DNA of 64,000 bases from a bacterium. Its GTDB lineage: Bacteria > Spirochaetota > Spirochaetia > Treponematales > UBA12059. How positions within the stretch are numbered: the stretch's first letter is position 1; the number at the start of each line of letters is the position of its first letter. The stretch covers positions 85,110-149,109 of the forward strand of contig DATKVB010000003.1 of the NCBI GenBank assembly GCA_035530295.1. The letters are read 5' to 3'. The position numbers were made by a program, and so were the translations under genes. The notes beneath the pieces were generated by a model, which was not told the origin of the DNA, ran no database searches, and was given only the letters and a program-made list of their open reading frames with translations. Of this stretch, positions 15,944-32,582 are shown in pieces.

Positions 15944-16858
15944 ATGCGCTTCCTGAAGCCACTCATGCATGCTACTGGATTTGTGCTGGTGATCATCGCG
16001 ATGGCGCTATGCCCGATTCTATTCGTTGTTAAAGATGGGCATGTGGTGATCAATGCAGCGATTGCGCTCGGTTTCGTTGCAGACTGGTTCTCAGGGTTGG
16101 CTGATGGAAGCTCATGGATCTTCTCAAGCGGATCCACAACATGGAATTTTGCAGACGTTGTGCCGAAATTTGCCTTCGTGACCCTGTCATACCTGGCGAT
16201 TCCCGGGATACTGGGGCTCGTCGGCGGATTTGCATTTGGTCTGACACGTGATCCGCTAAGGAGCCGGCACCGGCATCGGTTTACTGATACTGCACTGAAC
16301 GCGTTGTTCGCGCTGCCGGATTTTGTGCTCGCGGTATTGCTGCAATTGCTGGTCATAGTCGTACTAGATATCACCGGGCACAAGCTCTTCACTATTTCAT
16401 ACGATACGAGTCACGGAATCCTCTTGGCTCTGCCGCTTGTCGTCATGACGCTCTATCCGCTCATCTATTCGTACCGCATGGTGCTGCGTTCGGCCAGGCA
16501 CACCAGCGGGGCATCATTCATGGTCGATGCCGAGGCCCGTGGCGTTTCGAAGGCGAGCCTCAGATACAAACACATGGGTGTTGCCGTACTTGCGTCGATG
16601 AAGACGGAACTACCTTCAATCGTCGCCATCATGATGACTTCGATCTTCGTGGTCGAGTACTCATTCTCGTTGCCAGGCATGACTCGATGGCTATTTACGG
16701 TGGCATTCTCGGGCAGCAGGCGGGGATGGTACGATAACTATCAGTTTGCGCTCGCACTCAATATCCTCCTCTGCATGGCGGCGGCGTACTTTATAACGAT
16801 GCTGGTATTACGATTGACACTCGCATCGCTGAAGGCGGCTGTGGTTCATGCGCTATAA
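15944..16858 (+). CDS. divergent ABC transporter permease (DppB/OppB-like)
   Basis: 304 aa, polytopic. The region SFMVDAEARGVSKASLRYKHMGVAVLASMKTELPSIVAIMMTSIFVVEYSFSLPGMTRWLF parallels the conserved DppB loop (..ARAKGLS....KHALRN....FSWPGLGRL). Confidence 0.6.
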   Translation: MRFLKPLMHATGFVLVIIAMALCPILFVVKDGHVVINAAIALGFVADWFSGLADGSSWIFSSGSTTWNFADVVPKFAFVTLSYLAIPGILGLVGGFAFGLTRDPLRSRHRHRFTDTALNALFALPDFVLAVLLQLLVIVVLDITGHKLFTISYDTSHGILLALPLVVMTLYPLIYSYRMVLRSARHTSGASFMVDAEARGVSKASLRYKHMGVAVLASMKTELPSIVAIMMTSIFVVEYSFSLPGMTRWLFTVAFSGSRRGWYDNYQFALALNILLCMAAAYFITMLVLRLTLASLKAAVVHAL

Positions 16859-17750
16859 GTTGCTGATAGGTGGAGTGTGCCTCATTGCCCTTGGATTCAT
16901 AGCGGTGTTTCCGGGACTGTTCTCAAAATATCCCCGAGGTTACCAGGATATACTGCGATCTATAGAATCCAGCGATGGTACGGTTGCATGGCGATTTGCT
17001 CCGGAGGCTCCTTCTGATACATACCATTTTGGCAGCGACAACTATGGCTACGACATCCAGACACGAATACTCTGGGGGCTCCGCTGGACACTTGCATGCG
17101 TCATCATTGTCGCGCTGTCGCGGACACTGATTGGCGGTGCGGCCGGTGTCTTGCGTGTCCTTGTCTTTGGTGTCCACGGGTCCATCCGCACGGTCTCACC
17201 GATGGCAGTCATTCCCAGTTTTGTATTTGTCTTTTTTCTATTATACCCTATGACGATCAATTCACCGCTGGGAAGCCTGCGACTCCTTCTCTTTCAGTGT
17301 GCAGTCATGACTATCTTCGATTTGGGAGGCATCATATCGTCGATTTCTCTCAAGACCGAGGCGCTGATGAAGACATCGTTTTTCGAGGGCGCTGTCTCTT
17401 GCGGAGCGAACAGACTATGGCTTGCCAAGTACCATATTGTTCCATTCCTGGCCACCGACCTCATAGAGGCGTTCGCGACGCAGACTGTCGCTGTACTGCA
17501 ACTCGTTGGTCGGCTCGGAGTCTTCAGTCTCTTTGTTGGCGGGACCATCATGACGCTCGACCCGGTGATGCTGTCGTCAGCGAGCGGGGAGGTAGCCGGA
17601 CTCATAGGGCAGTACCGGGGCCGCCTTCAGGGCGCCCAATGGATGCTGCTCTATCCGCTTGGTACATATCTGGTAATTCTGGGTTCGCTACGGCTTTTTG
17701 TTTCCGGTCTGCATGATCAATTCAAGAAACTCGACCGCACATACTATTGA
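16848..17750 (+). CDS. divergent ABC transporter permease (DppC/OppC-like)
   Basis: 300 aa, overlapping the previous gene by 11 nt. HFGSDNYGYDIQTRILWGLRWTL resembles the DppC N-terminal H(L/F)GTDxLGRD motif. EGAVSCGANRLWLAKYHIVPFL resembles the EAAxxLGAS...I..HILPN loop. Confidence 0.6.
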   Translation: MRYKLLIGGVCLIALGFIAVFPGLFSKYPRGYQDILRSIESSDGTVAWRFAPEAPSDTYHFGSDNYGYDIQTRILWGLRWTLACVIIVALSRTLIGGAAGVLRVLVFGVHGSIRTVSPMAVIPSFVFVFFLLYPMTINSPLGSLRLLLFQCAVMTIFDLGGIISSISLKTEALMKTSFFEGAVSCGANRLWLAKYHIVPFLATDLIEAFATQTVAVLQLVGRLGVFSLFVGGTIMTLDPVMLSSASGEVAGLIGQYRGRLQGAQWMLLYPLGTYLVILGSLRLFVSGLHDQFKKLDRTYY

Positions 17751-17807
17751 AGAGTGCGGGCATCGGAATGGATGCGTCGCCGCATCAATGCATGCACGGT
17801 GCGATAG

Positions 17808-17850
17808 GTGCTGGGAGGGCCGACGTCGGCCTTCCCAGCACTCTTTTGCT
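17808..17850 (+). terminator. rho-independent terminator of the argGH-permease unit
   Basis: 16-bp GC-rich stem gtgctgggagggccga / tcggccttcccagcac (one G:U pair) followed by tcttttgctttg. Lies between convergent genes. Confidence 0.6.
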
Positions 17851-17871: not shown

Positions 17872-19068
17872 TTACAGTATCTCTCGCTTGGTGGCGCGCT
17901 CGAGTAATGCCTTGAGTGCAGCACTCGGGTCCTTGCGCTTGCCCAGCAGAATCATCGCGGCGATGATGTACGGCTTGTAGCTGGCTTCGGCGTAGGTGTC
18001 ATCGCGGTAGCGGTCGAACACGCTGGCGGCGACTTCGCCGGCCTTGCACGACACATCGGTGATGTCGGCTGGCAGACAGTGCATGTACAGCGCCTTGCCC
18101 TTGCTGGTCACCTTCATCTTCTGCTCGGTGCACTCCCAATCCTTGAAGTTGGCGTTGTTTGCAAGGCAAGCCTTTTCCAGATCCTTGAGGCCGGACTGGT
18201 CGCCGCTGTGCAGGAGCGGCACGCGTTTCTGCATCACATCGTATGGCGCCCAGCTCTTGGGATAGACGATGTCGGCATCCTTGAAGGCCTCTTCCATCGA
18301 GTTGACATGCTTGAACGATCCGCCGGATTCCTTGGCCTGCTTCTTCGACAGCGCGACGACATCAGGAATAAGATCGTAGCCTTCGGGATGAGCCAGCGTC
18401 ACATCCATGCCAAAGCGGCTGGCCAGGCCGATGATGCCCTGGGGCACAGACAGCGGTTTGCCGTACGATGGCGAGTATGCCCAGGTCATGGCGATCTTCT
18501 TGCCCTTGAGTTTGTCCAGCCCGCCAAAGTGGTGCGCCAGGTGCAATATGTCGGCCATCGATTGGGTCGGATGGTCGATATCGCTCTGCAGGTTGACAAT
18601 GGTCGGCCTGTCTGGCAATACGCCTGCCTTGACGCCGTCATCGAGTGCCTGCGCCACTTCGCGCTGGTACTTATCGCCTTCGCCAAGGTACATGTCGTCA
18701 CGGATGCCGATGGCTTCGGACAGGAAGCTTATCATGTTTGCGGTTTCGCGGACCGTCTCGCCATGGGCAATCTGGCTCTTGCCTTCATCAAGGTCCTGCA
18801 CATACAGGCCCAGGAGGTCGGCCGCGCTGGCGTATGAGAAGCGCGTGCGGGTGGAGTTGTCCCTGAAGTTTGAAACGGCGATGCCGGAATCCCAGATACG
18901 GGGGCTGACATTGGACTTTCGCATCTCGCGCAGTATGTCTGCGACCAGGAATGTCGCTTCGAGTTCGTCACGGCTCTTCTCCCAGGTCAGGAGAAAGTCA
19001 TTATGAAACATGTTGATCTTCTTCTTGGACAGCTGATCGATCAGCGCCTTGATTTCGTTAACGCCCAT
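17872..19068 (-). CDS. ygeW: YgeW-type knotted carbamoyltransferase
   Basis: Near-collinear with the remembered E. coli YgeW: FRDNSTRTRFSYASA, GKSQIAHGETVRETANMISF, KIAMTWAYSPSYGKPLSVPQGIIGL, MHCLPAD. GGAGG lies 8 nt upstream of ATG 19068; the alternative ATG is 19083. Confidence 0.9.
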   Translation of the reverse strand: MGVNEIKALIDQLSKKKINMFHNDFLLTWEKSRDELEATFLVADILREMRKSNVSPRIWDSGIAVSNFRDNSTRTRFSYASAADLLGLYVQDLDEGKSQIAHGETVRETANMISFLSEAIGIRDDMYLGEGDKYQREVAQALDDGVKAGVLPDRPTIVNLQSDIDHPTQSMADILHLAHHFGGLDKLKGKKIAMTWAYSPSYGKPLSVPQGIIGLASRFGMDVTLAHPEGYDLIPDVVALSKKQAKESGGSFKHVNSMEEAFKDADIVYPKSWAPYDVMQKRVPLLHSGDQSGLKDLEKACLANNANFKDWECTEQKMKVTSKGKALYMHCLPADITDVSCKAGEVAASVFDRYRDDTYAEASYKPYIIAAMILLGKRKDPSAALKALLERATKREIL

Positions 19069-19139: not shown

Positions 19140-22007
19140 CTATAACTTGCCCATCGCTCGCAATACGCGCTCGGCTGTAAATGGATAGACGCGGCACCAG
19201 GCACCGACTGCATCGTGTATCGCTATCGATATCGCCGGAGCGGCGCTGTTCAGCGATATCTCCGACACGCTCTTGCCACCAAACGGACCAATCTCGTCAG
19301 CCACAGGGACCAGCTCGACATGGAAATCGTCGGGCACCTCATAGATTGATGGAATCTTGTAATCCGTAAAGTTGAGGTTGAGCGGTCTGCCCTCATCATC
19401 GAACAGCAGCTCCTCATAGAGTGAGTGGCCGATGGCCTTCATGACGCCACCATAGATCTGGCCGATGGCCAGGCTTGGGTTGATCGGCGTTCCGCAGTCC
19501 TGGTATGCGTGGAACCGGCGGAGTTTTACCTCTCCGGTACGCACATTGACGGCAGCCTCCACGAAGTGGGCGCCATACGGGAATGCCGCGTGGTCGGTCT
19601 TGAAACTGCCAAAGCCAATCAGGTCGCCATGGCCTTCACCCTGTGTCGACATGTGGGCCAGCTTGGCCAGCGTTATCTCGCCCTTCTTGCCTCGAATGAT
19701 GCCCTTGTGAACGATCCGCAGATCGGACACCGGTTCTCCGAGCAGGGCAGCTGCGACAACGAAGCACTTGTCACGCAGGTCCTCGGCGGCCTTGACCGCG
19801 GCGTTGCCGGAGAAGTAGGTGCCTGAACTTGCGTATGCGCCTTTGTCGAACGGCGTGGTATCGGTGTCGCCGGAGACCACCGACACGTCGGTCATGTCGA
19901 GGCCCAGGATTTCAGCCGCCGCCTTCGCTGTCACCGTATCGAGGCCCGTGCCGAGGTCGGCTCCACCGGAAAGCATCAGCAGGCTGCCATCGGGCAGGAG
20001 CCTGAGCTCGGCGTTGGCGGCATCGAGTCCAGGCAAGCCCGAGCCCTGCTGTATGATCACCGCTCCGCGCCCAATTTTCCAGTCAGGGTCATCCGGCTGT
20101 GGTTTGGGCTTGTCCCACGCGAAGGCTTTGCGGCCGCGCGCTATCATCTCGCCAAGACCGCACTCACCCAGGGTCACCGCTGCGCCGGGGCGACCCTCTC
20201 CAAGGCTGCGGAGTATTTCTATGCGTGAACCGGACTGCACGCGGTTCTTCTCTATCAGCTCGAGCTGGTCCATGCCCAGCGCCTCGGCCAATTCCGCCAG
20301 CGCGGTCTGCAGCGCGAAGGATCCCTTCGGCGCGCCATACCCCTGGTAGGCGCCGGCGGGTGAGAGGTTCGTGTAGTAGGTCTTTACTTCGAAGCGGGCA
20401 TTGTCGCACAGGATCAGCGGAAGACTCTTGCTGACTGCGTTCATCGGGACGGTCAGGCAGTGCTGGCCATACGGGCCGGTGTCCGCATCAACACGCATTT
20501 CCATCGCGGTCAGCGTTCCATCCTTTTTGGCTCCCAGCTTCACCGTTATCTCCATGCCATGCCTGGTGCGGCTGGTCATGAACTCCATGGCGCGGTCGTA
20601 CCGGAAGAAGACAGGGCGACCCGTCTTCCAGGCCATGAACCCGGCAACATCTTCAAGAACGATGTCCTGTTTGGCGCCGAAACCGCCGCCGACGCGCTCC
20701 TTGATGACGCGCACCTTGTGCTCCGGAATTCCTACGGCGCGTGCGACGATGCGGCGCACATGCCAGGGCACCTGTGTTGACGCGTGCAGGACCAGGCGGT
20801 CAGAGTCAACCTTGGCATAGACAACGTGCGGCTCCATCGGTGTGCACTGCACACGGGTGCCCACATAGGTTCGTTCTATTACGACATCGGCCTGCTTGAA
20901 GCCCGCATCCATATCACCAATGCCATCGGCGACGCTCGCCGCCAGGTTGCGGTGCGGATCGGCGTGCAACGGGAACTGGTAGATGATTGGGTCATCGCGA
21001 TCGTCGCCCTTGACCGAAGTACCCGCGGGTGGATCTCCGGCGACATACGAAACGTTGCCATGATGGACTATCGGCGCTCCGGGCGCCTTGGCGTCCGCGA
21101 TGGTCAGCACCGGCTTGAGGACATCGTATTCGACGATTATCGCCTTGAGTGCCGCTTCGGCTTGCTCCGGCGTCTCGGCCAGTACGGCGGCTACTCGGTC
21201 GCCGACATGGCGCACCTTGCGCGGGAACATCCGCTGGTCGTAGGGGCTGGGTTCGGGATAGCCCTGACCGGCTGTCGTGTACACCTGGTCGGGGCAGTTC
21301 TCGTGCGTGACGATATCGATGACGCCAGGCATCTGCAACGCCTTGGAGACATCGATGCGCTTGATCCACGCATGGGCGTGTGGCGACATCAATAGCTTCA
21401 GGTGGCATGCGTCGGAGTCAAGTCTATCCTCGACGAAGGCCTTCTCGCCGCGAGCGAGCGCCGGAGCGTCCACCTTTTCCCTGTCCTTGCCAACGTGGCG
21501 AAGGTCGGGTCTGAACTCGGGACCATGGGGAGCGATGTATGACGGATCGGACAGCCTGCGCGAGGCAATCCTTGCCGCTTCATAGAATTGCTCGTATCCG
21601 GTACACCGGCACAGAGTGCCGGAAAGCGCATCGCGCAGTTCGTCGTCCTTGGGCACGGGACTTCTGTCCAGAAGATCATGCAGCGCGAGCACGACGGCTG
21701 GCGTGCAATAGCCGCACTGCACGCACGAGGCGTCTATGAGCGACTGTTGTACGATCGACAGCTTGCGATCCTTGGAGTAGTGCTCGACCGTAAGTATCCG
21801 GGAGCCTTCAACCTGGGGCGCCAGTATCTGGCATGAGTTGACGAGGCGGCCATCGAGCAGCACCGCGCACAGTCCGCACGATCCTTCTCCATCACAGCCG
21901 TCCCGTACCGAGATGATGCCCTTGCGCCTGAGCAGGGAGCGCAGGGTTTCTCCTGGCTCGCAGTCCCAGGCGACGAGGCGCTCGTTGAGTGTAAAAGTAA
22001 CCTTCAT
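19140..22007 (-). CDS. xdhD: XdhD-type molybdenum hydroxylase (fused N-terminal 2Fe-2S domains plus molybdopterin subunit)
   Basis: 955 aa (E. coli XdhD is about 956 aa). 2Fe-2S motifs CDGEGSCGLCAV and CGYCTP...CRCTGY, then Moco-domain blocks ERVGGGFGAKQD, GGADLGTGLDT and DCGTPINPSLAIGQIYGG. ATGA overlap with ygfM. Confidence 0.9.
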   Translation of the reverse strand: MKVTFTLNERLVAWDCEPGETLRSLLRRKGIISVRDGCDGEGSCGLCAVLLDGRLVNSCQILAPQVEGSRILTVEHYSKDRKLSIVQQSLIDASCVQCGYCTPAVVLALHDLLDRSPVPKDDELRDALSGTLCRCTGYEQFYEAARIASRRLSDPSYIAPHGPEFRPDLRHVGKDREKVDAPALARGEKAFVEDRLDSDACHLKLLMSPHAHAWIKRIDVSKALQMPGVIDIVTHENCPDQVYTTAGQGYPEPSPYDQRMFPRKVRHVGDRVAAVLAETPEQAEAALKAIIVEYDVLKPVLTIADAKAPGAPIVHHGNVSYVAGDPPAGTSVKGDDRDDPIIYQFPLHADPHRNLAASVADGIGDMDAGFKQADVVIERTYVGTRVQCTPMEPHVVYAKVDSDRLVLHASTQVPWHVRRIVARAVGIPEHKVRVIKERVGGGFGAKQDIVLEDVAGFMAWKTGRPVFFRYDRAMEFMTSRTRHGMEITVKLGAKKDGTLTAMEMRVDADTGPYGQHCLTVPMNAVSKSLPLILCDNARFEVKTYYTNLSPAGAYQGYGAPKGSFALQTALAELAEALGMDQLELIEKNRVQSGSRIEILRSLGEGRPGAAVTLGECGLGEMIARGRKAFAWDKPKPQPDDPDWKIGRGAVIIQQGSGLPGLDAANAELRLLPDGSLLMLSGGADLGTGLDTVTAKAAAEILGLDMTDVSVVSGDTDTTPFDKGAYASSGTYFSGNAAVKAAEDLRDKCFVVAAALLGEPVSDLRIVHKGIIRGKKGEITLAKLAHMSTQGEGHGDLIGFGSFKTDHAAFPYGAHFVEAAVNVRTGEVKLRRFHAYQDCGTPINPSLAIGQIYGGVMKAIGHSLYEELLFDDEGRPLNLNFTDYKIPSIYEVPDDFHVELVPVADEIGPFGGKSVSEISLNSAAPAISIAIHDAVGAWCRVYPFTAERVLRAMGKL

Positions 22008-22804
22008 GACATTTCCTCCGCGGCGTGCATCGCGTCGGCTACGAGCGCCGCGCCGCGCAATCGCTTGTAATCGGCACTGCCGCGCTGGTCGGCTATCGCC
22101 CCCAGGAGCGGATCAACAGCCTTGTCGATGGCCTCCTTGGGTGGCAGCGCCGAGCCCTCGAACTGCCTGTCTATATCGGGCCGGAGCTGGGCGTGCGCGG
22201 CGAATCCGCCAACAGCGATCCTGAGATCCCGCACCGCGCCGCCTTCGAGCCGGTACGCGCAGGCTGCCGTTGCGGTCGCTATGTCGCATGCGGTTCTGCT
22301 CGCCCTGAGGCTCGAGGCACGCAGGCCTTTGGCTATCCTGACGCGCACATTGAGGATGAGGCCACGTGGCGAATCAAGCCACTCGGCCAGCGGTGTAGTC
22401 GCGGCGGGTCTGCCGCGCTCCTGGTATTCAACCAAAGCACCGAGCACAAGGAAGATTGGCGCGAGGCTGGAGCACGACTTGTTGCCCGCGAGATTTCCCC
22501 CGACGGTCGCCCGGTTCCTGGTGTTGCGGTTAGCCATCGATCGCGCCGCCGCTGCGATGACGGCCGGCATCTGGCCGAACTCTATCAGTTCCTGGAAGGT
22601 GGCGCAGGCGCCGATGATCAGCTCGTCGCCGCGCCGCAGTATCGCCTTGGGCAACAGCTTGCCGATGTCGACAATGCGCTCGGGCTTGTCCCTGGCCTCG
22701 AATGCCAGCACCGCAGTGCCGCCGGCTATCGCGACCGTTCCTGCGACAGCCAGCAAGTCCAGGGCTTCTCCCATGCTCGTTGGTCTGTAATATTCTTTTA
22801 CCAT
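22004..22804 (-). CDS. ygfM: YgfM-type FAD-binding subunit of molybdenum hydroxylase
   Basis: 266 aa. The N-terminus EYYRPTSMGEALDLL...IAGGT is FAD_binding_5-like. Also NRATVGGNLA and a C-terminal GSADYKRLRGAALVADA. Confidence 0.85.
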   Translation of the reverse strand: MVKEYYRPTSMGEALDLLAVAGTVAIAGGTAVLAFEARDKPERIVDIGKLLPKAILRRGDELIIGACATFQELIEFGQMPAVIAAAARSMANRNTRNRATVGGNLAGNKSCSSLAPIFLVLGALVEYQERGRPAATTPLAEWLDSPRGLILNVRVRIAKGLRASSLRASRTACDIATATAACAYRLEGGAVRDLRIAVGGFAAHAQLRPDIDRQFEGSALPPKEAIDKAVDPLLGAIADQRGSADYKRLRGAALVADAMHAAEEMS

Positions 22805-24198
22805 AATGCTGTTACCCCAGCTTTCGTAAGGAGGCGCTTGGCGCAGCGATTGGCTTCGTCGCGTATGCGGTCCTCGTCGGCTCCGGTCAGACGCCCGTCC
22901 TTGACGACAACGTGACCATTGACGATGAGGTGATCGACGCCATGGTTGTAGCCGGAAAACAGCAGGGCCGCTGCCGGATCTGACAGGGCGCCGGCGTATT
23001 CCAGCTTCATGACGTCGAACATAGCGATGTCGGCGAGCGCTCCTGGCTCCATCGAGCCGGCATCGTCGTAACCGAGTATCCGCGCGCCGCCAATCGTAGC
23101 GACGCCCAGAACCTCGCGGGCGTTGATGCCGCCCGAGCCATAGCGCACGCGTTGCAGCAACAGCGCCTGCCTTGCCTCGCCGAGCATGTCGGAGGCATCG
23201 TTGGAGGCCGAGCCATCGACGGCCAGTCCAACGTTGACGCCGCGGTCGAGCATGTCGCGGACACGGCAGATGCCTGAGCCGAGCCTCATGTTTGATGACG
23301 GGCAGTGCGCCACGCCGGTGCCCGTACTGGCCAGGAGGTCGAGCTCCTCATCGTTGAAGTGAATGCCGTGCGCGTACCAGACATCCTTGCCTACAAAGCC
23401 ATTGTCCTCCATCACCCTGAGCGGCCGGCGGCCAAGTGTCTGCATGCAGAAATCGGTTTCGTCGGCCGTCTCCGCCAGGTGCGTGTGGAGCCTGGCGCCG
23501 TACTTGCGCGCCAGATCCGCCGCGTCGCGCATCGACTTTTCGGAAACAGAGAATGGCGAGCATGGAGCCAGCGCGACGCGCCGCATCGAGTCGGGCGACC
23601 GGTCGTGATACTTCTGTAGCGCGTCTTCGCTCTGCGCCAGTATCTCGTCCTCGTCCTGGACAACGCTGTCGGGCGGCAGCCCGCCGTCTTTTTTTGACAG
23701 CGACATCGATCCCCGTGTGGGCGCGAAGCGCAAGCCAATCTCCGAGGCTGCCTTGAACTGGATGCCAGGCAGATCGCCGGTAAAGGTGCGCGGGTACAGG
23801 TAGTGGTGGTCGGTGGACAGCGTACAGCCGGTCTTGGCCAGTTCGGCCATCGCGAGCATGCTTGACCAGTACACGGCTTCTTCGTCGATACCTTTCCAGA
23901 CCTCGTAGAGGTAGACAAGCCAATCGAACAGCTTGGCATCCTGCACTGCCGGCACGTTGCGTGTCAGCGTCTGGTAAAAGTGGTGGTGTGTATTGACCAG
24001 TCCTGGCAAGACGACATGGCGGCTGGCATCGATGACGACGCATCCCTGTGGCACCGGAATTGCCTTGCCTATCGTCTTGATGCGCTTGCCTTCTATAAGA
24101 ATATCGACGCCAGAAAGGTCATCCCCGGAGGAGCCGGCTTGAGAACCGGCCCCATACCGGGGGCGGACCACCCTGAAGCAGTCCTTGAGCAGAATCAC
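22798..24198 (-). CDS. COG0402 amidohydrolase (8-oxoguanine/guanine deaminase or chlorohydrolase-like)
   Basis: 466 aa. Metal-binding PGLVNTHHHFYQT, plus HTHLAET, VAHCPSSNMRLGSG and VDGSASND. GTG start at 24198 overlaps the upstream stop (GTGA). Confidence 0.8.
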   Translation of the reverse strand: MILLKDCFRVVRPRYGAGSQAGSSGDDLSGVDILIEGKRIKTIGKAIPVPQGCVVIDASRHVVLPGLVNTHHHFYQTLTRNVPAVQDAKLFDWLVYLYEVWKGIDEEAVYWSSMLAMAELAKTGCTLSTDHHYLYPRTFTGDLPGIQFKAASEIGLRFAPTRGSMSLSKKDGGLPPDSVVQDEDEILAQSEDALQKYHDRSPDSMRRVALAPCSPFSVSEKSMRDAADLARKYGARLHTHLAETADETDFCMQTLGRRPLRVMEDNGFVGKDVWYAHGIHFNDEELDLLASTGTGVAHCPSSNMRLGSGICRVRDMLDRGVNVGLAVDGSASNDASDMLGEARQALLLQRVRYGSGGINAREVLGVATIGGARILGYDDAGSMEPGALADIAMFDVMKLEYAGALSDPAAALLFSGYNHGVDHLIVNGHVVVKDGRLTGADEDRIRDEANRCAKRLLTKAGVTALW

Positions 24199-25652
24199 CT
24201 GAGAACCTCCGCGTTGAATTCCTTTATCATCGTGTCGATGAGCGGCGCTTGTGCATGAATATTTCCCCAGTACGCGCGATAGTCATCCCACTGCGCGTTC
24301 AGCTCCTCGAGCTGCTTTCCGAGCTGTTCTATCCAGGTATAATACTTGAGTTGGTGGACACGCCTGCGGTCGACGTGGGTCATGTCGAGCACGTAGTCGA
24401 CCGACAGGTTTTTCAGCATGTCGAGGTCACGGTCGGCCTGGCGCTGGTCGTAGGGGCCGCGCTCCGCGGCAAGCTCGAGCAGCCTGGAACCATAGAGCGC
24501 GAGCGAGTCGGTGAAGACGGTCAGCGCTATGTCGTCGGCTCCGAGTTCGTAGTACTTGGCGGCCTTGATCGTGGCGACCAGGTTGCCGATGCCGGAGATG
24601 CCCATCAGGTCGAGCTTGGCGAGCACGTCGGCGGAGACGCCAGCCTCGGCCAGGACCTTCTTGCCAGCCGGCTCGTTGAAGAGGCGGAGGAGGCGGATCG
24701 TTATCTCGTCGTCGACGCCGACGGCGACATCGGTGTCACGGAGATTGTGGATCCATGGAATGTGCTTGTCGCCTATGCCTTCGATGCGGTGGCCGCCGAA
24801 GCCGTTTTCAAGAATGGTCGGGCACTGCAGCGCCTCGCCGACGCCGACACGCGTGCCTGGATGGTGTTCCTTGAGGTAGGTGCCGGAACCGAGCGTGCCG
24901 GCCGAGCCAGAAGAGTACATGGTCAGCGCCAGGTGATCGCCGGCTTTGGCCATCAGCTTGAAGACATCGTCCATGGCCGGACCGGTGACGGAGTAGTGCC
25001 ACAGGTGGTTTGGCAGCTGGTCAAACTGGTTGAATATGACGGCGTCTGGCCTGGTCTTTTCGATCTCGATGCACTTGTCGAAAATTTCCTTGACGTTGGA
25101 TTCACAACCCGGGGTTGCTATCACTTCGTCAGCCATCGTCTTGAGCCAGGTAAAGCGCTCCTTTGACATTTCGGCTGGCAGGATGGCGACCGACGGGCAG
25201 GAGAGCAGCTTGGAAATGTAGGCGCCACCACGGCAGTAGTTGCCGGTCGATGGCCAGACGGCCTTCTTGGTGGTCGGGTCGAAGCGACCGGTAACCAGTT
25301 CAGGCACCAGACATGAATATGCGGCACCAACCTTGTGGGCTCCGGTGGGGAACCACTTGCCGACGATGCCGGCGATGCGGGCCTTGGTGCCCGTTATCTC
25401 GCGGGGTAGCTCGAAGTAGTTGACATTGCCGAACTGGCCGCCCTTTTCCTTTGGCTCGTTCTTCCATGTCACGCGGAAGAGGTTGCGGCTGTGGGTGTCC
25501 CACAGGCCGATGTTCTTGAGTTCGTCCTTGTACTGCTGCGGCACCTTGGACGGGTCGCGCATCTGCTCGTAGGTCGGCAGGACAATGCCCTTTTCTTTGC
25601 AGCGCTGGATGTTCTTCTTGCGTGCCTTCTCGTCAATCCGTAAATCGATCAT
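24195..25652 (-). CDS. fold-type II (TrpB/cysteine-synthase-like) PLP-dependent enzyme, unusually long (485 aa)
   Basis: TrpB-like PLP-lysine motif FPTGAHKVGAAYS. Gly-rich phosphate loop SSGSAGTLGSG. AAGGAG lies upstream of ATG 25652. Not a YgeX (diaminopropionate ammonia-lyase) orthologue by length or motifs. Confidence 0.7.
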   Translation of the reverse strand: MIDLRIDEKARKKNIQRCKEKGIVLPTYEQMRDPSKVPQQYKDELKNIGLWDTHSRNLFRVTWKNEPKEKGGQFGNVNYFELPREITGTKARIAGIVGKWFPTGAHKVGAAYSCLVPELVTGRFDPTTKKAVWPSTGNYCRGGAYISKLLSCPSVAILPAEMSKERFTWLKTMADEVIATPGCESNVKEIFDKCIEIEKTRPDAVIFNQFDQLPNHLWHYSVTGPAMDDVFKLMAKAGDHLALTMYSSGSAGTLGSGTYLKEHHPGTRVGVGEALQCPTILENGFGGHRIEGIGDKHIPWIHNLRDTDVAVGVDDEITIRLLRLFNEPAGKKVLAEAGVSADVLAKLDLMGISGIGNLVATIKAAKYYELGADDIALTVFTDSLALYGSRLLELAAERGPYDQRQADRDLDMLKNLSVDYVLDMTHVDRRRVHQLKYYTWIEQLGKQLEELNAQWDDYRAYWGNIHAQAPLIDTMIKEFNAEVLR

Positions 25653-25723
25653 GTCGTTCTCCTTTGTGTCTCATGTGTACAGGTCAATGCTTGTCGATCA
25701 GATATGTGTCGTACAATACTCGT

Positions 25724-26926
25724 TCACAGACCAAGGCCCTTCATGGCGCCGCCGATGTCCTTGAGGCCGGAGCCGGTCAGCATCACGACAATAGTCTCAT
25801 CGGGGCGCAGGCTCGACTTGGCCTTCTGGAAGCCTGCCCAGGCCGCGCTCGAGCTGGGTTCGGCAAAGAGCCCCGCCTGAGCGGCCAGCTCCTTCTGCGC
25901 ATCAAGGATTTCGGCATCGGTGACGACGACAGCCTTGCCGCCATATTTCTTGAGCTTCGCAAGCGCGTAGGCTCCGTTGCGCGGGACATCGACCGATATC
26001 GAATCGGCTATCGTGTCGCTTGGAATCGGCTTGCCAAAGCTACCCGATGCCAGAGCCCTGGCTATCGCGCTGGAGCCCTCGGCTTGGCACGCCCAGATTG
26101 TCGGCATCTTCTGGATGCGCCCCAGCCTGACCAGATCCTCGAAGCCCTTGTAGACGCCGGCAATGATGACGCCATCGCCGACCGGCACGAAGACATGGTC
26201 GGGGGCGATGTAGTCCTTTTTGGCCAATTCGGCGAGGTGGCCGGCGCGTCGTGCCTCGTGCTCCCGGGCATGCGCCAGGTCGCGAACCATCTCGAAGCTG
26301 ACTGTCTTCTTGCCTTCTATGGTCAGCGGATTGTAGGCGGTATTCCGCGAAAGCACGCCGGTAGCCTTGCTGTACGCCAGCGACTGGTCGAAGGCGACAT
26401 CGTAGGTGCCATCGACCTCCTTGAGGTCCGCTCCATATTGCAGAACCTGGACCCGCTTGGCGACCGGCGCCTTCCTGGGCAGGAACACCGTTATCTTGAG
26501 CCCTGCCGCGGCGCCGACGCCGGACATGCTGGAGGCCGCGTTGCCGGTGCTTGCCAGCGCAATCTCGGTAATGCCGTGTTCCCGCGCGAAGCCCGCGACC
26601 AGGTAGGACGCTCGATCCTTGAATGAACCGGTCGGCTCGCAGGTGTCATCCTTCAGGAAGAGGCGCGGAAAGCCGCTCTCCTGCCTGAGCCGGATGGGCT
26701 CCCACAGCGGCGTGTTGCCTACCGGCAATGGAGGCAGATATTCCTTTGCCACCGGCAGTGGTATATCGTCCGGACCGCCATCATACCGGCCTTCCCACGC
26801 GCATTCGAGCACGCCGGCCAGCGGCTGGTCGACCTGTTGCTTGGCGGCGCAGGCATCGCACAGGTAGCGTTCCGGCTTTATATCATACTCCGCCCCGCAC
26901 TCGGGGCACTTGTAGAACCACCGCAT
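25724..26926 (-). CDS. threonine-synthase-family PLP enzyme with N-terminal Cys4 zinc-ribbon
   Basis: MRWFYKCPECGAEYDIKPERYLCDAC (CxxC..CxxC), then the PLP-lysine motif PTGSFKDRAS and ASTGNAA. ATG 26926 lies 1 nt after the ygeY stop. The ORF-track extension is rejected. Confidence 0.75.
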   Translation of the reverse strand: MRWFYKCPECGAEYDIKPERYLCDACAAKQQVDQPLAGVLECAWEGRYDGGPDDIPLPVAKEYLPPLPVGNTPLWEPIRLRQESGFPRLFLKDDTCEPTGSFKDRASYLVAGFAREHGITEIALASTGNAASSMSGVGAAAGLKITVFLPRKAPVAKRVQVLQYGADLKEVDGTYDVAFDQSLAYSKATGVLSRNTAYNPLTIEGKKTVSFEMVRDLAHAREHEARRAGHLAELAKKDYIAPDHVFVPVGDGVIIAGVYKGFEDLVRLGRIQKMPTIWACQAEGSSAIARALASGSFGKPIPSDTIADSISVDVPRNGAYALAKLKKYGGKAVVVTDAEILDAQKELAAQAGLFAEPSSSAAWAGFQKAKSSLRPDETIVVMLTGSGLKDIGGAMKGLGL

Positions 26927-26927
26927 A

Positions 26928-28148
26928 TTACAGCTTGGCCGACTCGAGGGCGTAGGGGAGGGCGGCGTAGAAGGCAGCGGCCTTCCAGAGGTCGTCAACC
27001 CGTGTTATCTCGTTCGGAGCGTGGGCCTGGCTCTCGTCGCCGGGGCCGAAGCCGATGCTCGGAATGCCGTGCCTGCCGGCCACCGCCACCGCGTTGGTGG
27101 AGAATGTCCACTTGTCGACGACAGGGGCGTTGCCGAAGACTGCCTCATGGGCAGCCACACCTGCCTTGACGAAGGGATGGTCGGCCGGGAATTTCCAGGT
27201 GGGGAAATACAGTTCCTGGCGGTAGTCCTTGCCTGTCCAGCTCGGTATGGCATATTCAGGCATCTTGACCTCGACGGCATCGACACCGGCCGCAAGGATG
27301 GCGTCCTTGACCTGCTTCATGGCCAGATCGGCCGTCTCGCCCCAGGTCAGACGGCGATCCAGGTACAGCATAGCCTCATCGGGAACGGCGCACTGTGACG
27401 GACCATGGACATTGATCTGCGAAACGACGACGGTGCCCTTGCCAAGGAAGCCATCCTCGTCCGGCTTCAATGAGTCATTGAGCTTCTCCATCGCCAGGGC
27501 AGCGCGCGCGGCCTTGTATGCCGCTGAGACGCCACGTTCCGGGGCCGAACCATGGCATGATACGCCCTTCATGTGCACTTCCATCTCCATGCGGCCGCGG
27601 TGTCCGCGGTACAGGCGAAGGGTGGTCGGCTCGGTGGACACGAAGAAGTCCGGTACGAACTTCTCTTCCTCTATCAGGTACTTCCAGCACAGACCATCGC
27701 AGTCTTCTTCTATTATAGAGAACACAAACCAGACGCTGTAGTCGCCCGAATACTTGAGTTCCTTGAGGATGCGGCCGGCGGTTATCATCGCGGCAGCTCC
27801 GCCGGTCTGATCGCTCGTGCCGCGTCCATGGACCAGGCCATTCTCGATGTCGCCGGAGAAGGGGTCCTTCTTCCACTGCGAGCGATCGCCTATGCCAACG
27901 GTGTCGATGTGCGCGTCGATGACGAGCTTCTTGGGGCCGTTGCCGACCCTGGCCAGCAGGTTGCCAAGACCGTCGATGCGCACTTCATCGAATCCAGCCT
28001 TCTCGCACATGTCCTTGAGGAGCATGATGCGTTCCTTTTCCTTGTTGCTCATCGCTGGAACCTTGATGATGGTCGAGAGGTTCTTCGCGGTCCAGTCCTT
28101 GTACGACTCGGCCTTGGCCTTGATTTCCTTACCGTTCTGCATGCTCAT
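26928..28148 (-). CDS. ygeY: YgeY-type M20 family peptidase/deacylase
   Basis: Near-collinear with the remembered E. coli YgeY: DAHIDTVGIG, GRGTSDQTGG, EEDCDGLCWKYLIEE, VSCHGSAPERG, DRRLTWGET, APVVDKWTFSTN. GGAGG lies 7 nt upstream of ATG 28148. ATGA overlap with the ssnA stop. Confidence 0.9.
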   Translation of the reverse strand: MSMQNGKEIKAKAESYKDWTAKNLSTIIKVPAMSNKEKERIMLLKDMCEKAGFDEVRIDGLGNLLARVGNGPKKLVIDAHIDTVGIGDRSQWKKDPFSGDIENGLVHGRGTSDQTGGAAAMITAGRILKELKYSGDYSVWFVFSIIEEDCDGLCWKYLIEEEKFVPDFFVSTEPTTLRLYRGHRGRMEMEVHMKGVSCHGSAPERGVSAAYKAARAALAMEKLNDSLKPDEDGFLGKGTVVVSQINVHGPSQCAVPDEAMLYLDRRLTWGETADLAMKQVKDAILAAGVDAVEVKMPEYAIPSWTGKDYRQELYFPTWKFPADHPFVKAGVAAHEAVFGNAPVVDKWTFSTNAVAVAGRHGIPSIGFGPGDESQAHAPNEITRVDDLWKAAAFYAALPYALESAKL

Positions 28149-29467
28149 TTCCTTTCCTCCATTCGCTGCCACAATCTGCGCGTTTCCGATCTTCCGCGGG
28201 CCGCGATTGCAGCGGCGTCGAAGAGCGGCTTTCTGTCCTTGACTATGAATCTGCCCGCGACCATGGTCGAAGCGACCATGCGCGAGCCCATGCCAAATGC
28301 AACATGACCGGCCACATTACCGCTTTCAAGCGGAGTGGGCGGGTCGTAATCCCAGAAGGTGAGGTCGGCTTCGTATCCAGCCTCGACCCTGCCAAAGTGC
28401 TTGCCCGGGAAGTACCGTTCGAGCAGCCTGTTGCCATTCTGGAGCATCCCCAGGAAGGCGTCCATCCACATCGTGCCGCCGGCATCGTGATGCTTGAAGA
28501 ATGCAAAATTCGCTTCCTCGATCATGTCCGAACCGATGCCATCGGTGCCCAGTACCGCGTTCCTGTACAGACCAATCTTGTCATTATAGCCGACGGCGTT
28601 GTTCATGTTCGACCGCGCGTTGTGGGCTATGAACGAGTCGCGCTCGTTGACCAGCTCCACTTCACTGGGCGACAGGAAGAGGCCGTGGCCCAGTATCGTC
28701 TTGGGGCCAAGGAGGCCGGCATCATCCAGCCGGACGCAAATGTCCTTGTCAAAGCGATACCGCGAATCGACAGCGTCGAACTTGTCCTCGGCCACATGGA
28801 TGTGCAGGCCTCGTCCCGTGCTGGAACAGGCATCCGACAGGTCAGAGAGCGTCGCGTCTCCGATAGTGAAAGGCGCGTGGGCGCCAATAGCCGATTCGAC
28901 GAGGGGGTCGAGTCCGCGGGCACGCTCGGCATCCAGGCTCTTGGCAAAGCGGACATTCTCGCGCACGCCTGCCTTGGCGCCGTCCATGCCGTTGCGATCG
29001 GTGGTCTCGTAGCACAGAACGCCGCGGATGCCTACCGTGTCGAAGCCCTCGCGCAGAACGTCCAGTGAGCCATCGATGTATTCGGGACTCGCATGGTGGT
29101 CGACTACCGCGGTGACTCCGAGCATAGCCGCGTCGGCGGAGCCGGCAAGGCCGCTGGCTCTGACAATGCCTTCATCTATCGCACGGTCCAGAAGCCACCA
29201 CATGTTCTTCAGCTGCTGCGCAAAGTCCTTGCTGGGGGCAATAGCGACGGCCAGGCCGCGCGCGAGTGCCGAGTAGAAGTGGTTGTGCGAGCACACCAGT
29301 CCTGGGCTTACATATCCGCCGGGAGACATGCGCTCCGCCCGCGGATACTTGGCGGCCAGGCTCGAGCCTACCTCGATGATCTTCGAGCTCTCAATCGCGA
29401 CATCCATCGGTTCCGATACTGAACCAGGGTAGAAATGCAGAATCCGCACATGCTCAAGAATGATCAT
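28145..29467 (-). CDS. ssnA: SsnA-type aminohydrolase
   Basis: 440 aa, collinear with the remembered E. coli SsnA: SHNHFYSALARG, VVDHHASPEYIDGSL, GRGLHIHVAED, AHNARSNMNNAVGY, LGTDGIGSDMIEE, FFKHHDAGG. Confidence 0.9.
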   Translation of the reverse strand: MIILEHVRILHFYPGSVSEPMDVAIESSKIIEVGSSLAAKYPRAERMSPGGYVSPGLVCSHNHFYSALARGLAVAIAPSKDFAQQLKNMWWLLDRAIDEGIVRASGLAGSADAAMLGVTAVVDHHASPEYIDGSLDVLREGFDTVGIRGVLCYETTDRNGMDGAKAGVRENVRFAKSLDAERARGLDPLVESAIGAHAPFTIGDATLSDLSDACSSTGRGLHIHVAEDKFDAVDSRYRFDKDICVRLDDAGLLGPKTILGHGLFLSPSEVELVNERDSFIAHNARSNMNNAVGYNDKIGLYRNAVLGTDGIGSDMIEEANFAFFKHHDAGGTMWMDAFLGMLQNGNRLLERYFPGKHFGRVEAGYEADLTFWDYDPPTPLESGNVAGHVAFGMGSRMVASTMVAGRFIVKDRKPLFDAAAIAARGRSETRRLWQRMEERK

Positions 29468-32400
29468 GCCTTGCCTCCGGCTACCATGTACCGATGCGAA
29501 TCATGAATTGTCCGCGCTATGGCGAGCATCGCCGAGTCGCGCGCCGACGCGGTCCAGTCTGACCAGGCCAGCGTGCTGACCGCGGCGTCTTTGCCCTGGT
29601 CGGACCGTACCACGATGGTGGGGCGGTCTGTATGGCCGACGAACGCGAAGCCGGCGTTGCCGCTGGCCCTGAGTGATGCCTCGTCGCGGAACAGCGTTGG
29701 CTTGCCTGAGTACGGTTCGCCATCGTAGGGGCAGAAGAAACCGCAGTTGCCGCACTCGTTGCAGAGGTCGTCGACATGAACTATCTGGATGGCCTGCGCG
29801 ATCGGGCCACCGGGAGCCACCGGCAAGGCGACATTGGCGCGATTGGGGCACACTTCGACGCAGCGAAGGCAGGCCGAACCGCATGACAGGCAACGCTCCG
29901 CTTCCCTCGCCACGAAACCGGGATGATCGACTGGCAGGCTTGGCAGGACATCGCCGCGATGTGACAACACCTCGTAATCGGGTGCCTGGGGAGCAAGCTG
30001 CTCCACCGTCGGTTCGATGCCTGCTGCTTGCAGAATGGCATACGCCGCAACTCGGCCATCGGCTTCCCCCGCGATGATGCTGGCTGGTCCGCGGCGCGCA
30101 TCACCGGCCGCGTAGAGTCCCGCCACTGTCGTAGCCATGGTCTTCTGATCGACCACGGGCCGCCCGTCCCTGGCGACTTCTGCGCCGAGGCTCTGGAACA
30201 GGCCGCGGTCGGGGCTCTCGCCGACTGCCGCGACCACGAGGTCGCATTGCATGTCGCGGACGCGCGTCGAGGCGACTGGAGCCCTTCGACCCGAGGCATC
30301 CGGTTGTCCGAGTTCCATCTCGCGCACGCGCAACACGGGAGTAGAGCCCCCGATGCCCGGAGTCATGCGCTCCGGCAAAGATAGTTCCGAGTAGACGACC
30401 CGGTCCGCGAGCGCGGCTTCGAACTCTTCCCGGTCGGCGGGCATCTCCGCCAAGGTCCGGCGATAGAGGATGCTGACCTTGGGCTTGCCGGGCAACCGCG
30501 CGGCCACCCGGGCCGCGTCCATCGCGGTGTTGCCGCCGCCGGCGACAACGATGGCCTTGTAGCCGTCGAACTCGCCCTTGCCCTCATGCGCTGCTCCCAG
30601 GAACTCCAGCGCGTCGATGACGCGTATGCCGGTGCCTTCGATGGGCAGTTCCCTGGGCACCGGGGCACCGGTCGCTATCACAATCGACGTGAACCCGTCG
30701 CGCTTGAGCGCCTGTGAGTCTATGGCACCGGAATGATTGAACACGAATCGCGCGCCAAGGTCCTCGATCCTCTTGATGTCAGCCACAATGTCGTCGCGGG
30801 AAATGCGGAAGCCCGGAATCACGTTGGCGGGAACGCCGCCCGCCGCGGGTGCCTCGTCAAAGACGGTAACAGGGTAGCCCTCGAGGGCCAGATAGTGGGC
30901 GCATGCGAGTCCGGCTGGGCCGGCGCCGAAGACCGCTGTCTTGCCCTTGCCGGAGAGCACTGGTTTCTTGACAACAGGTACCGCGGCGGACCTGGCGCAC
31001 GCCAGTTTCATCGCCCTGATTTCCACCGGGCCCTCGTAATCGACTCGAGAGCAGGCCGTCATGCACTGGTGGTCACAGAGGACGCCTGTGATGTGCGGCA
31101 GCGGATTGTCAGCCAGCACGATTGACAGGGCCTTCTTCGCGTCGCCCGCGGCGAGTGCCTTCATGTAGGCGGGCGGCTTCTGGCTGGCCGGGCAGGCTTC
31201 GACACATGGCGCGGCAAAGCAATCGGTCAGGGGCAGAGTCTTTTTGATTCTGGCCTCGCCTTTCTTGTAGTCGCCATGGAAGGCCTTGTCCTTCAGGGCG
31301 GCATCGGCGAGATCGGCAAGACGCGCGGCATCCGGCCGTGCCGGTATCCCTGCCTTGAGGGCACGGACGGCCTCGCTGGCCATCGGTTCCAGTCTCAGGT
31401 ATCCGCCCGGCTTCAGGATATCGGTCGCGACAGTCAGGGGGCCAAGCCCCGCGGCTATGCAGTCATAGGCGTTGTGGGCGCTTGCGCCTCCGCAGTACGA
31501 GAATGCCGGCGGCTCCGGCATGGCGGCCGATATCTTCGCGGCCAGGGCCGTGGTTATGGGGAACAGCGCCCTGCCTGACATGTACCGTTCGGCGCCGGGC
31601 ATACGGCCGCCATCATTGACGTTGGCCAGCGTATTTGACAGCTTGATCCCGAAGCGCTGCCCCTTGGCTTTGGCCTTGCCGCGCAAGGACGCCACGAGCT
31701 TGAGAGCGGCGTCGAACTGCAGGTCATGCTCGAATGTCGGGCGCTTGACCACGATGCGCTGCCATCCTGTGGTATCAAGAATATCCCGCACCATGTCATA
31801 CCCGAGCAGCGTGGGATTGAGCTTCACGTACGCGTCGAAGCCTTTATCTTCTATTAGATAGGCGCCGATCCGTTCGATCTCATCGGGAGGGCACCCATGC
31901 ATCGTGGATAGCGTAACCGAGTGCACAGGCGCCGATGGCATTGCACGGACTATGTCTCTGGCGCGGGCTGCGCCGGCGGCGCCAAAGGCCGCGGCGAATG
32001 ACGGGGACTGGACAGCCGCCGCCGCCTCACTCAGGGCGGTAGCCCAGACCGGCGTGCCTGTCGGCGACCGCATGCCTTCTATGAACGCGTCCATGCGCGG
32101 GCCCTTGATTCCATCGAGGGTGTACCCGACTGACATATTGAACATCAGGGCACCTGGCTTGTCCGACAGTGCCGCGCGCAGCACATGGATCGCTATCCAT
32201 GCGCGGAGGTACTCGGCACGGGCCTCGTCGAGCGTCAGCTCGGTCGACCACTCGACGTTGTGGCCCTCATCGAGGGCATCGATGCATGGCTTGTCTATAT
32301 CGAGCCTGTCGTTCTCCTGCACCGTCTTGAGCTCGAACACCCGCGATCCGGCCAGCCAGGCCGCGATGAGGTTCGGAGCAATTTGCGTGTGCGGACCCGC

Positions 32401-32574
32401 GGCCGGGCCGACGGGCAAGCCGATCCTGAGACCGTTTACCTCAAAGCCGGGAGACCTGGCCTCGAGTTCCAGAACGCGGCGCGTCAGCGCGGCGGGTATG
32501 TCGTAGACGCTGTCACGCGCCTTCCATTCGCCAACGATTCGAGCCATAAGCTCGCTCATCGGCAGGGACTTCAT
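29464..32574 (-). CDS. ygfK: YgfK-type multidomain Fe-S/flavin oxidoreductase (annotated elsewhere as putative selenate reductase subunit)
   Basis: About 1036 aa from ATG 32574 (MKSLPMSELMARIV aligns with the E. coli MRPIPFEELLTRIF). Blocks VGPAAGPHTQ, VTLSTMHGCPP, YMSGRALFP, VFGAGPAGLA, NTAMDAARVA, and C-terminal ferredoxin motifs CLSCGSACLRCVEVCPNRAN and CNECGNCGFFCPYDG. Confidence 0.9.
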   Translation of the reverse strand: MKSLPMSELMARIVGEWKARDSVYDIPAALTRRVLELEARSPGFEVNGLRIGLPVGPAAGPHTQIAPNLIAAWLAGSRVFELKTVQENDRLDIDKPCIDALDEGHNVEWSTELTLDEARAEYLRAWIAIHVLRAALSDKPGALMFNMSVGYTLDGIKGPRMDAFIEGMRSPTGTPVWATALSEAAAAVQSPSFAAAFGAAGAARARDIVRAMPSAPVHSVTLSTMHGCPPDEIERIGAYLIEDKGFDAYVKLNPTLLGYDMVRDILDTTGWQRIVVKRPTFEHDLQFDAALKLVASLRGKAKAKGQRFGIKLSNTLANVNDGGRMPGAERYMSGRALFPITTALAAKISAAMPEPPAFSYCGGASAHNAYDCIAAGLGPLTVATDILKPGGYLRLEPMASEAVRALKAGIPARPDAARLADLADAALKDKAFHGDYKKGEARIKKTLPLTDCFAAPCVEACPASQKPPAYMKALAAGDAKKALSIVLADNPLPHITGVLCDHQCMTACSRVDYEGPVEIRAMKLACARSAAVPVVKKPVLSGKGKTAVFGAGPAGLACAHYLALEGYPVTVFDEAPAAGGVPANVIPGFRISRDDIVADIKRIEDLGARFVFNHSGAIDSQALKRDGFTSIVIATGAPVPRELPIEGTGIRVIDALEFLGAAHEGKGEFDGYKAIVVAGGGNTAMDAARVAARLPGKPKVSILYRRTLAEMPADREEFEAALADRVVYSELSLPERMTPGIGGSTPVLRVREMELGQPDASGRRAPVASTRVRDMQCDLVVAAVGESPDRGLFQSLGAEVARDGRPVVDQKTMATTVAGLYAAGDARRGPASIIAGEADGRVAAYAILQAAGIEPTVEQLAPQAPDYEVLSHRGDVLPSLPVDHPGFVAREAERCLSCGSACLRCVEVCPNRANVALPVAPGGPIAQAIQIVHVDDLCNECGNCGFFCPYDGEPYSGKPTLFRDEASLRASGNAGFAFVGHTDRPTIVVRSDQGKDAAVSTLAWSDWTASARDSAMLAIARTIHDSHRYMVAGGKA

Positions 32575-32582
32575 GATCTTGC

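Follow-up and report, generated by a model that had tools for sequence, protein, structure and literature searches.

The reductive pathway by which anaerobic bacteria break down urate was elucidated as recently as 2025 and now serves in profiling and engineering gut bacteria to counter hyperuricaemia and gout. In the route as published, YgeW and YgeY together release 2,3-diaminopropionate (DAP), which YgeX converts to pyruvate and ammonia by a pyridoxal phosphate (PLP)-dependent α,β-elimination (10.1101/2025.04.24.650524; PMC12507026; PMC12990295). The intermediates have been proposed to be R-configured, with their stereochemistry an acknowledged open issue, and the order of ureido cleavage, hence albizziin as an intermediate, is disputed (PMC12990295). 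Two cluster variants have been published, with UacX in place of YgfK and UacY in place of YgeW (PMC12507026). Here we describe a 64,000-nucleotide stretch of DNA, called the window in the following, from a bacterium of the order Treponematales (UBA12059; contig DATKVB010000003.1, positions 85,110 to 149,109), in which the place of ygeX next to ygeY is occupied by two genes for other fold-type II PLP enzymes. We refer to them as PLP1 and PLP2. Judging from gene context and sequence comparison we lean towards the reading that both form a conserved module, which would fulfil the role of YgeX in a widely distributed variant of this anaerobic pathway. The two genes and the spacer between them are located as follows:

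25724–26926, minus strand: PLP1, 400 aa, ThrC-like fold-type II PLP enzyme (translated open reading frame, ORF)
25653–25723, minus strand: PLP1–PLP2 spacer, 71 bp, with an AAGGAG ribosome-binding site and two copies of TGTAC(N)ACA
24195–25652, minus strand: PLP2, 485 aa, PLP enzyme of the CysK/CBS fold (translated ORF)

The genes that make up a reductive urate (2,8-dioxopurine) cluster, namely those for XdhD/YgfM, YgfK, SsnA, HyuA, YgeW and YgeY, are all grouped at this locus, and tblastn gave no match to YgeX within the 64 kb of the window. The initial annotation had stated that neither protein resembles YgeX, and the comparison agrees with it. BLASTP against E. coli YgeX aligned PLP1 at 19% identity over 144 aa and PLP2 at 28% over 46 aa, in both cases over less than 150 residues. 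A hidden Markov model (HMM) trained on E. coli YgeX plus as many as 39 YgeX ORFs out of the examined loci reported neither protein and scored E. coli YgeX itself at 584 bits. Using one genome per GTDB species we collected PLP2 loci and retained the best 80 of 596 confirmed matches (54–77% identity, full length). YgeX was present in none of these 80 PLP2-centred loci, where the top score of the YgeX HMM (47 bits) fell on PLP1 genes. For the converse scan metagenomes were searched with YgeW and 80 loci were kept, most of them from gut Firmicutes. These loci show the gene order YgeX-YgeY-YgeW-YqeA, and YgeX is found in 34 of the 40 that are at least 10 kb long. Two of the 80 YgeW-centred loci carry PLP2 without YgeX (L094 and L142 in our numbering). 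In L142 PLP2 is located directly upstream of ygeY-ygeW, divergently transcribed and without PLP1, and it adjoins ygeY-ygeW(-carbamate kinase) in L085 and L037 as well as in L142. Taking both scans together, PLP2 and YgeX did not occur in one locus in any of the 160 loci, which argues that PLP2 takes the place of YgeX in the clusters that carry it.

YgeX (DpaL, E. coli b2871, 2,3-diaminopropionate ammonia-lyase) belongs to the same superfamily as PLP1 and PLP2 (fold-type II, Pfam PALP). The two proteins hold the equivalent place in the cluster next to ygeY/ygeW, and the mutual exclusion suggests the same role. However, they are not orthologous to YgeX: two genes are found for one, of which PLP2 falls within the CysK/CBS branch and PLP1 within that of ThrC. 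The simplest reading is therefore that of a known pathway with a variant at its last step, i.e. a non-orthologous displacement. This is the same kind of event as in the UacX and UacY variants, where certain lineages perform one step with a non-orthologous enzyme; the difference is that here the replaced step is the last one. The urate-pathway literature that we searched makes no mention of a ThrC-like or CysK-like replacement of YgeX (10.1101/2025.04.24.650524; PMC12507026; PMC12990295). The initial annotation had placed two non-YgeX fold-type II enzymes in the position of YgeX and had suggested an undescribed variant of the pathway. The first of these statements is borne out by the synteny among Spirochaetota, the recurrence in purine clusters of many phyla and the 160 loci without overlap, and the second has gained strong comparative-genomic support, the enzymes being absent from those papers.

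The nearest relatives of the locus are found in Spirochaetota, within which its synteny is kept. Among the best 80 matches PLP2 is present in Spirochaetota, Chloroflexota, Bacillota, Bacteroidales, Bipolaricaulota, Synergistota, Desulfobacterota, Atribacterota and others. We clustered the ORFs of the 80 PLP2 loci and counted the neighbours of PLP2:

PLP1: 42 of 77 loci, median gap 133 bp, in either order
OTC-like carbamoyltransferase: 25 loci
Xdh molybdenum (Mo) subunit: 24 loci
SsnA-like amidohydrolase: 24 loci
HyuA-like amidohydrolase: 22 loci
YgeY: 20 loci
YgfK: 15 loci
Carbamate kinase: 13 loci

Nucleoside-type ABC transporters, MocA, XdhC and UacX-like reductases are further recurrent neighbours. 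Of the PLP2 loci, 53 span 12 kb or more; 39 of them have purine-pathway genes within 10 kb of PLP2, and none contains YgeX. PLP1 is present in 36 of these 53 loci, and its distribution follows the purine genes (32 of 39 loci with them, 4 of 14 without). The two genes are immediate neighbours on the same strand in 24 of 77 loci. An obligate complex of PLP1 and PLP2 was considered and is less likely, because their order flips between lineages, four to nine genes intervene in several loci and PLP2 also occurs without PLP1.

PLP2 accompanies each known version of the lower pathway: YgeW together with YgeY, two OTC-like genes together with carbamate kinase, and either YgfK or UacX. In loci of Anaerolineae it is paired with lower-pathway genes only. 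A UacX-like reductase (DHO_dh and 4Fe-4S) takes the place of YgfK in L018 (5410–6600) and L072, so that PLP2 combines with both published reductase variants. Two adjacent OTC-like genes with carbamate kinase and without YgeY were noticed in the Anaerolineae loci L044, L061, L072, L076, L086 and L087, and also in L025 and L034. In such clusters both ureido groups of diureidopropionate are possibly phosphorolysed, yielding two ATP instead of one. We also noticed a conserved protein of about 190 aa (u192) encoded just downstream of PLP2 in 15 loci, typically ahead of the HyuA-like amidohydrolase (for example L070 3068–3646 and L080 11578–12156). Most of the 15 loci belong to Anaerolineae or other Chloroflexota. 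As a candidate partner of PLP2 u192 was discarded, being lineage-restricted and without a Pfam match. In the locus of Anoxybacter fermentans (L169) a glycyl-radical enzyme and its radical-SAM activase follow immediately downstream of PLP2.

PLP2 matches the Pfam family PALP with 49.6 bits and stays far below the curated models of its branch (cysK 70 bits against a cut-off of 351, cysKM 65 against 344, CBS 51 against 510, SbnA 34 against 350). No curated family cut-off is reached by either PLP1 or PLP2. The initial annotation had called PLP2 TrpB/cysteine-synthase-like, of which only the second half holds. TrpB models were missing among the NCBIfam matches of PLP2 at E-values up to 0.01, and the resemblance to TrpB is limited to the GAHK motif. 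The PLP lysine had been placed correctly: K106 (TGAHKVGAAY) corresponds in the alignment to the PLP-binding lysine of plant O-acetylserine sulfhydrylases (OASS), and the Asn loop S134-T135-G136-N137 as well as Q208 align with the corresponding OASS residues. S352, which we read from the GISG motif beyond the printed alignments, is likely the N1 serine. K106, S134-T135-G136-N137, Q208 and S352 are all invariant across 65 PLP2 homologues. PLP2 has an invariant loop IEGIGDKH where OASS has QGIGAGF; in the structural model this is the region of lowest confidence.

The AlphaFold2 (AF2) model of PLP2 has a predicted local distance difference test (pLDDT) score of 89.8 and a predicted template modelling (pTM) score of 0.92. 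Foldseek retrieved OASS, CBS and β-cyanoalanine synthase with template modelling (TM) scores of about 0.8 relative to the target. These matches span about 320–350 of 484 residues, a CysK-type single PALP domain comprising about 300–320 aa (plus CBS domains in CBS). PLP2 is about 165 aa longer than CysK. An N-terminal extension had been noted before at roughly 90 aa; it exists but measures about 75 aa, and the C-terminus is extended as well, by about 135 aa of helical structure, which had gone unmentioned. Both extensions are specific to the family, and their helices gave no Pfam match. By sequence PLP2 is assigned to the CysK/CBS branch, not to TrpB. With OASS, CBS and β-cyanoalanine synthase, including the SbnA type, it shares the PLP lysine, the STGN loop, the Gln, the phosphate loop and the predicted N1 Ser. 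It differs from this clade by an identity of only 20–27%, the terminal extensions and the altered loop. The context differs too, PLP2 being found among catabolic purine genes and not in sulfur assimilation. PLP2 homologues are numerous: the 8000 word-sharing candidates that were scored all reached E ≤1e-10, and clustering at 50% left 292 representatives at E < 1e-30. The names shown for these homologues are nothing finer than ‘pyridoxal-phosphate dependent enzyme’ or ‘cysteine synthase’.

PLP1 had been described as a threonine-synthase-family protein directly downstream of ygeY, which agrees with its ThrC-like fold and with the position of its ATG one base past the ygeY stop codon. It matches Pfam PALP with 224 bits. 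In contrast, it stays below the cut-off of the ThrC models NF006050 (187 bits, cut-off 303) and TIGR00260 (137.6 bits, cut-off 167.1) and below that of every other ThrC model. The best Foldseek matches of the AF2 model (pLDDT 90.7) are class-I threonine synthases (1uin, 2zsj, 6cgq; TM about 0.8, 31–36% identity), followed in the ranking by threonine deaminases and serine racemases/dehydratases. PLP1 shares with the structures from T. thermophilus (Tth), A. aeolicus, B. subtilis and M. tuberculosis the fold and the SFKDR lysine motif: its K103 (GSFKDRAS) aligns with Tth K61 and with the lysine that carries PLP in the solved threonine synthases. The second feature pointed out in the initial annotation, an N-terminal zinc ribbon CxxC...CxxC (KCPECG...LCDAC; C7, C10, C23 and C26), was likewise recovered. 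It is kept in nearly all of 43 aligned members of the PLP1 family and is common to the ‘threonine synthase’ database families PRK08197 and PRK05638, whose matches to PLP1 begin at residues 5–6.

PLP1 departs in two motifs from the solved ThrC structures aligned, which share the Arg and the Thr concerned: NP[HY]R[LI]EGQKT has become NPLTIEGKKT, and STGNT has become STGNA. The Arg (Tth R160) is missing from its motif position in 43 of 43 aligned family members, which have Thr, Leu or Met there; a single member carries an Arg one place past this position. The Thr of STGNT (Thr88) is replaced by Ala in all 43. We take R160 and Thr88 of T. thermophilus ThrC to be binders of the substrate phosphate. 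The identification of PLP1 with OrtB (2-amino-4-oxopentanoate thiolase) was also considered and rejected: PLP1 gave only a weak partial match and PLP2 none. PLP1 and PLP2 represent two large families that have no characterised member in the libraries and literature searched.

How the two enzymes would close the pathway can be outlined as follows. By orthology to the tested enzymes of E. coli and C. sporogenes, XdhD/YgfM, YgfK, SsnA and HyuA would convert urate to 2,3-diureidopropionate, and YgeW and YgeY would strip its two ureido groups to give DAP. PLP2 would be the core catalyst, turning DAP into pyruvate and ammonia on a CysK scaffold. DAP would be bound as an external aldimine at K106, the α-proton would be removed and the β-amino group eliminated, and the released aminoacrylate would hydrolyse to pyruvate and ammonia. 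The IEGIGDKH loop and the N- and C-terminal extensions might form a pocket for the β-substituent and a lid, which is a guess. PLP1, with a ThrC fold that would have lost the phosphate site and with its occurrence mainly in purine contexts, would act as an accessory partner. YgeX uses two bases and so handles both isomers. Since the published route has been proposed to lead to the R (D) isomer, our preferred guess, speculative as it is, would be that PLP1 racemises DAP or handles the enantiomer that PLP2 cannot take.

The conserved Lys, Asn loop, Gln and putative N1 Ser together with the confident model of an OASS/CBS fold suggest that PLP2 is catalytically competent, which speaks for the displacement of YgeX. 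A number of points weigh against it. DAP as the substrate is deduced from the context, and the need for two enzymes is left unexplained. Enzymes of the CysK fold typically carry out β-replacement on L-amino acids, holding the aminoacrylate rather than releasing it. PLP1 is absent within 10 kb in 7 of the 39 loci with purine context as well as in L142. Purine genes are lacking within 10 kb in about a quarter of the PLP2 loci that reach 12 kb or more; the neighbours checked in these are unrelated, namely housekeeping genes in L045, L077 and L014. Anaerotignum sp. MSJ-24 (L036) also has its PLP2-PLP1 pair among housekeeping genes, and the cultured Anoxybacter fermentans (L169 10001–15214, CP016379.1) has PLP2 without PLP1 or purine genes. 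A broader role of PLP2 is therefore possible; in these genomes the remaining pathway may be encoded elsewhere, or PLP2 may indeed have such a role. Moreover, the absence of YgeX refers to 10 kb on each side of the loci and to 64 kb for the window, and both scans retained the 80 loci most similar to the query, so that the counts are not an unbiased census.

Alternatively, the pair could work in the urate pathway on a different intermediate or towards a different product, for example by β-elimination or replacement on 2-amino-3-ureidopropionate (albizziin), or by conversion of DAP to serine or cysteine with water or sulfide. The locus would then represent a branch and not a substitution. PLP2 has the fold and the residues of β-replacement enzymes (OASS, CBS, β-cyanoalanine synthase), the chemistry of ThrC finishes with the addition of water, and two enzymes suggest two steps. 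The disputed order of ureido cleavage also leaves room for albizziin as an intermediate (PMC12990295). Yet both ureido groups have probably been removed before the PLP step, because PLP2 is accompanied either by YgeY plus a carbamoyltransferase or by a pair of carbamoyltransferases. The strict separation of PLP2 and YgeX is what a like-for-like substitution predicts, and pyruvate is the useful product for a fermenter. We regard a different intermediate or product as plausible but rather unlikely. In a related and still doubtful form, PLP2 would represent a phylum-spanning branch of the CysK fold whose chemistry is not a plain copy of that of YgeX, and together with PLP1 it would provide a two-enzyme route acting on D-DAP or albizziin, either by racemisation and elimination or by β-replacement to serine or cysteine. 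If true, this route would connect amino-acid metabolism with the anaerobic breakdown of purines through a new terminal branch, and the N- and C-terminal domains peculiar to the PLP2 family would create a new substrate lid.

Other explanations would remove the pair from catabolism altogether. Along with MocA, XdhC and an NTPase-like gene, the pair borders an Xdh operon in L015, L023, L024, L031, L040 and L074, a neighbourhood that has historically been tied to selenium-dependent molybdenum hydroxylases (PMC2276186). The enzymes could serve the maturation of Mo hydroxylases, e.g. as a cysteine or selenocysteine desulfhydrase giving sulfide or selenide for the Mo cofactor, and release of H2S is possible for relatives of CysK and CBS. 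However, clusters of the YgeX type contain Xdh and maturation genes and go without PLP2, so that a maturation role gives no reason for the exclusion between PLP2 and YgeX. In L142, L085 and L037 PLP2 adjoins ygeY-ygeW-carbamate kinase and not Xdh, and the restriction to lower-pathway genes in Anaerolineae points the same way; we consider a role in maturation quite improbable. The public annotations of relatives, ‘threonine synthase’ and ‘cysteine synthase’, would suggest that ordinary biosynthetic genes merely happen to lie in a purine cluster; the folds match, and some PLP2 genes do lie amid housekeeping genes. The initial annotation had named ordinary threonine and cysteine enzymes as the finding that would speak against its proposal. 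This is contradicted by the scores of both proteins far under every curated equivalog cut-off and by the ThrC residues missing from PLP1, i.e. the motif Arg and the Thr of STGNT, the latter replaced by Ala throughout the family. The additional length and altered active-site loop of PLP2 and an association with purine genes that recurs over many phyla also argue against it, leaving an ordinary biosynthetic function highly improbable.

In the window PLP1 and PLP2 belong to a co-directional minus-strand array that extends over about 20 kb, with overlaps or very short gaps. YgeW, XdhD, YgeY, SsnA and YgfK of the window score above the NCBIfam cut-offs of their named families. Listed in the direction of transcription, the other features of the array are:

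32583–33977, minus strand: HyuA-like cyclic amidohydrolase of the allantoinase/hydantoinase family (family search and gene call)
29464–32598, minus strand: YgfK flavin/Fe-S reductase (TIGR03315, 1016 bits against a cut-off of 835; gene call)
28145–29467, minus strand: SsnA aminohydrolase (NCBIfam, 510 bits against a cut-off of 444)
26928–28148, minus strand: YgeY, M20 hydrolase (NCBIfam YgeY equivalog, 494 bits against a cut-off of 321; public gene call)
22798–24198, minus strand: 8-oxoguanine-deaminase-like amidohydrolase (NF006055, 609 bits against a cut-off of 532)
22004–22774, minus strand: YgfM-like FAD subunit (public gene call)
19140–22007, minus strand: XdhD Mo/Fe-S subunit (TIGR03313, 1209 bits against a cut-off of 1102; gene call)
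17872–19068, minus strand: YgeW knotted carbamoyltransferase, final gene of the array (NF005538, 696 bits against a cut-off of 453)
17807–17842, immediately past the end of ygeW: G+C-rich hairpin of 16 bp with a T-run (scan for terminator-like sites)

The hairpin at 17807–17842 is probably the terminator of the 20-kb purine operon and perhaps also ends the convergent gene. Inside the array, including the PLP1–PLP2 spacer, no terminator-like sites were found, and the spacer contained no promoter-like sites. The stop codon of PLP2 overlaps the start of the amidohydrolase at 22798–24198 by 4 bp; in 9 related loci PLP2 is likewise followed directly by an SsnA-like amidohydrolase from the same ORF cluster. 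Farther upstream in the neighbourhood of the array a second xanthine dehydrogenase, an adenine deaminase and a xanthine/uracil permease are encoded. The public gene calls on the matching metagenome contig agree with the calls made here. Carbamate kinase (YqeA/ArcC-like) gave no tblastn match within the 64-kb window and is possibly encoded elsewhere in the genome. The window thus contains YgeW, which makes carbamoyl phosphate, without the kinase that adjoins the carbamoyltransferase in many related loci.

The 71-bp spacer was described correctly as containing its own AAGGAG, which lies 7 nt ahead of the ATG of PLP2. The initial annotation had further noticed the motif TGTAC(G)ACA twice in this gap and had suggested a possible operator. 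Both copies are present (25674–25681 and 25707–25715), and TGTAC(N)ACA is enriched about five-fold in the window (5 observed versus 1.09 expected). The remaining three copies, TGTACGACA, lie outside the spacer at 8053, 14329 and 41006. In four relatives, however, the spacer is anywhere between 10 and about 130 bp long and differs in sequence, with the ribosome-binding site alone conserved. Since neither sequence nor length is conserved, we rejected the motif as a conserved operator.

Further observations concern other parts of the window. Two overlapping ORFs of about 300 aa (15944–16858 and 16848–17750, both on the plus strand) are located between an argininosuccinate lyase gene and ygeW. Neither has a Pfam match; the public record also calls both, again without a Pfam hit. 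At 48008–49934 (plus strand) adjacent genes for a PfkB-family kinase and an Indigoidine_A-family protein resemble a pseudouridine kinase/glycosidase pair and are unrelated to PLP1 and PLP2. An Rfam scan of the whole window returned one tRNA only and no riboswitch.

The distinction between YgeX and the two enzymes described here bears on how the pathway is surveyed. In a published analysis the neighbourhoods of SsnA were coloured ‘YgeX’ by Pfam PF00291 (PMC12507026), a colouring that could not separate PLP1 and PLP2 from YgeX because both match PF00291. Surveys use YgeX or PF00291 as a marker, and an identity cut-off for YgeX would miss PLP1 and PLP2. The 39 of 53 PLP2 loci with purine genes and without YgeX belong to Spirochaetota, Anaerolineae, Bacteroidales, Bacillota, Bipolaricaulota and others. 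Finding that PLP1 and PLP2 close the pathway in place of YgeX would offer alternative parts for engineered urate-degrading strains and would bear on the stereochemistry of the pathway intermediates. It would also assign a function to two large families that are labelled ‘pyridoxal-phosphate dependent enzyme’, ‘cysteine synthase’ or ‘threonine synthase’.

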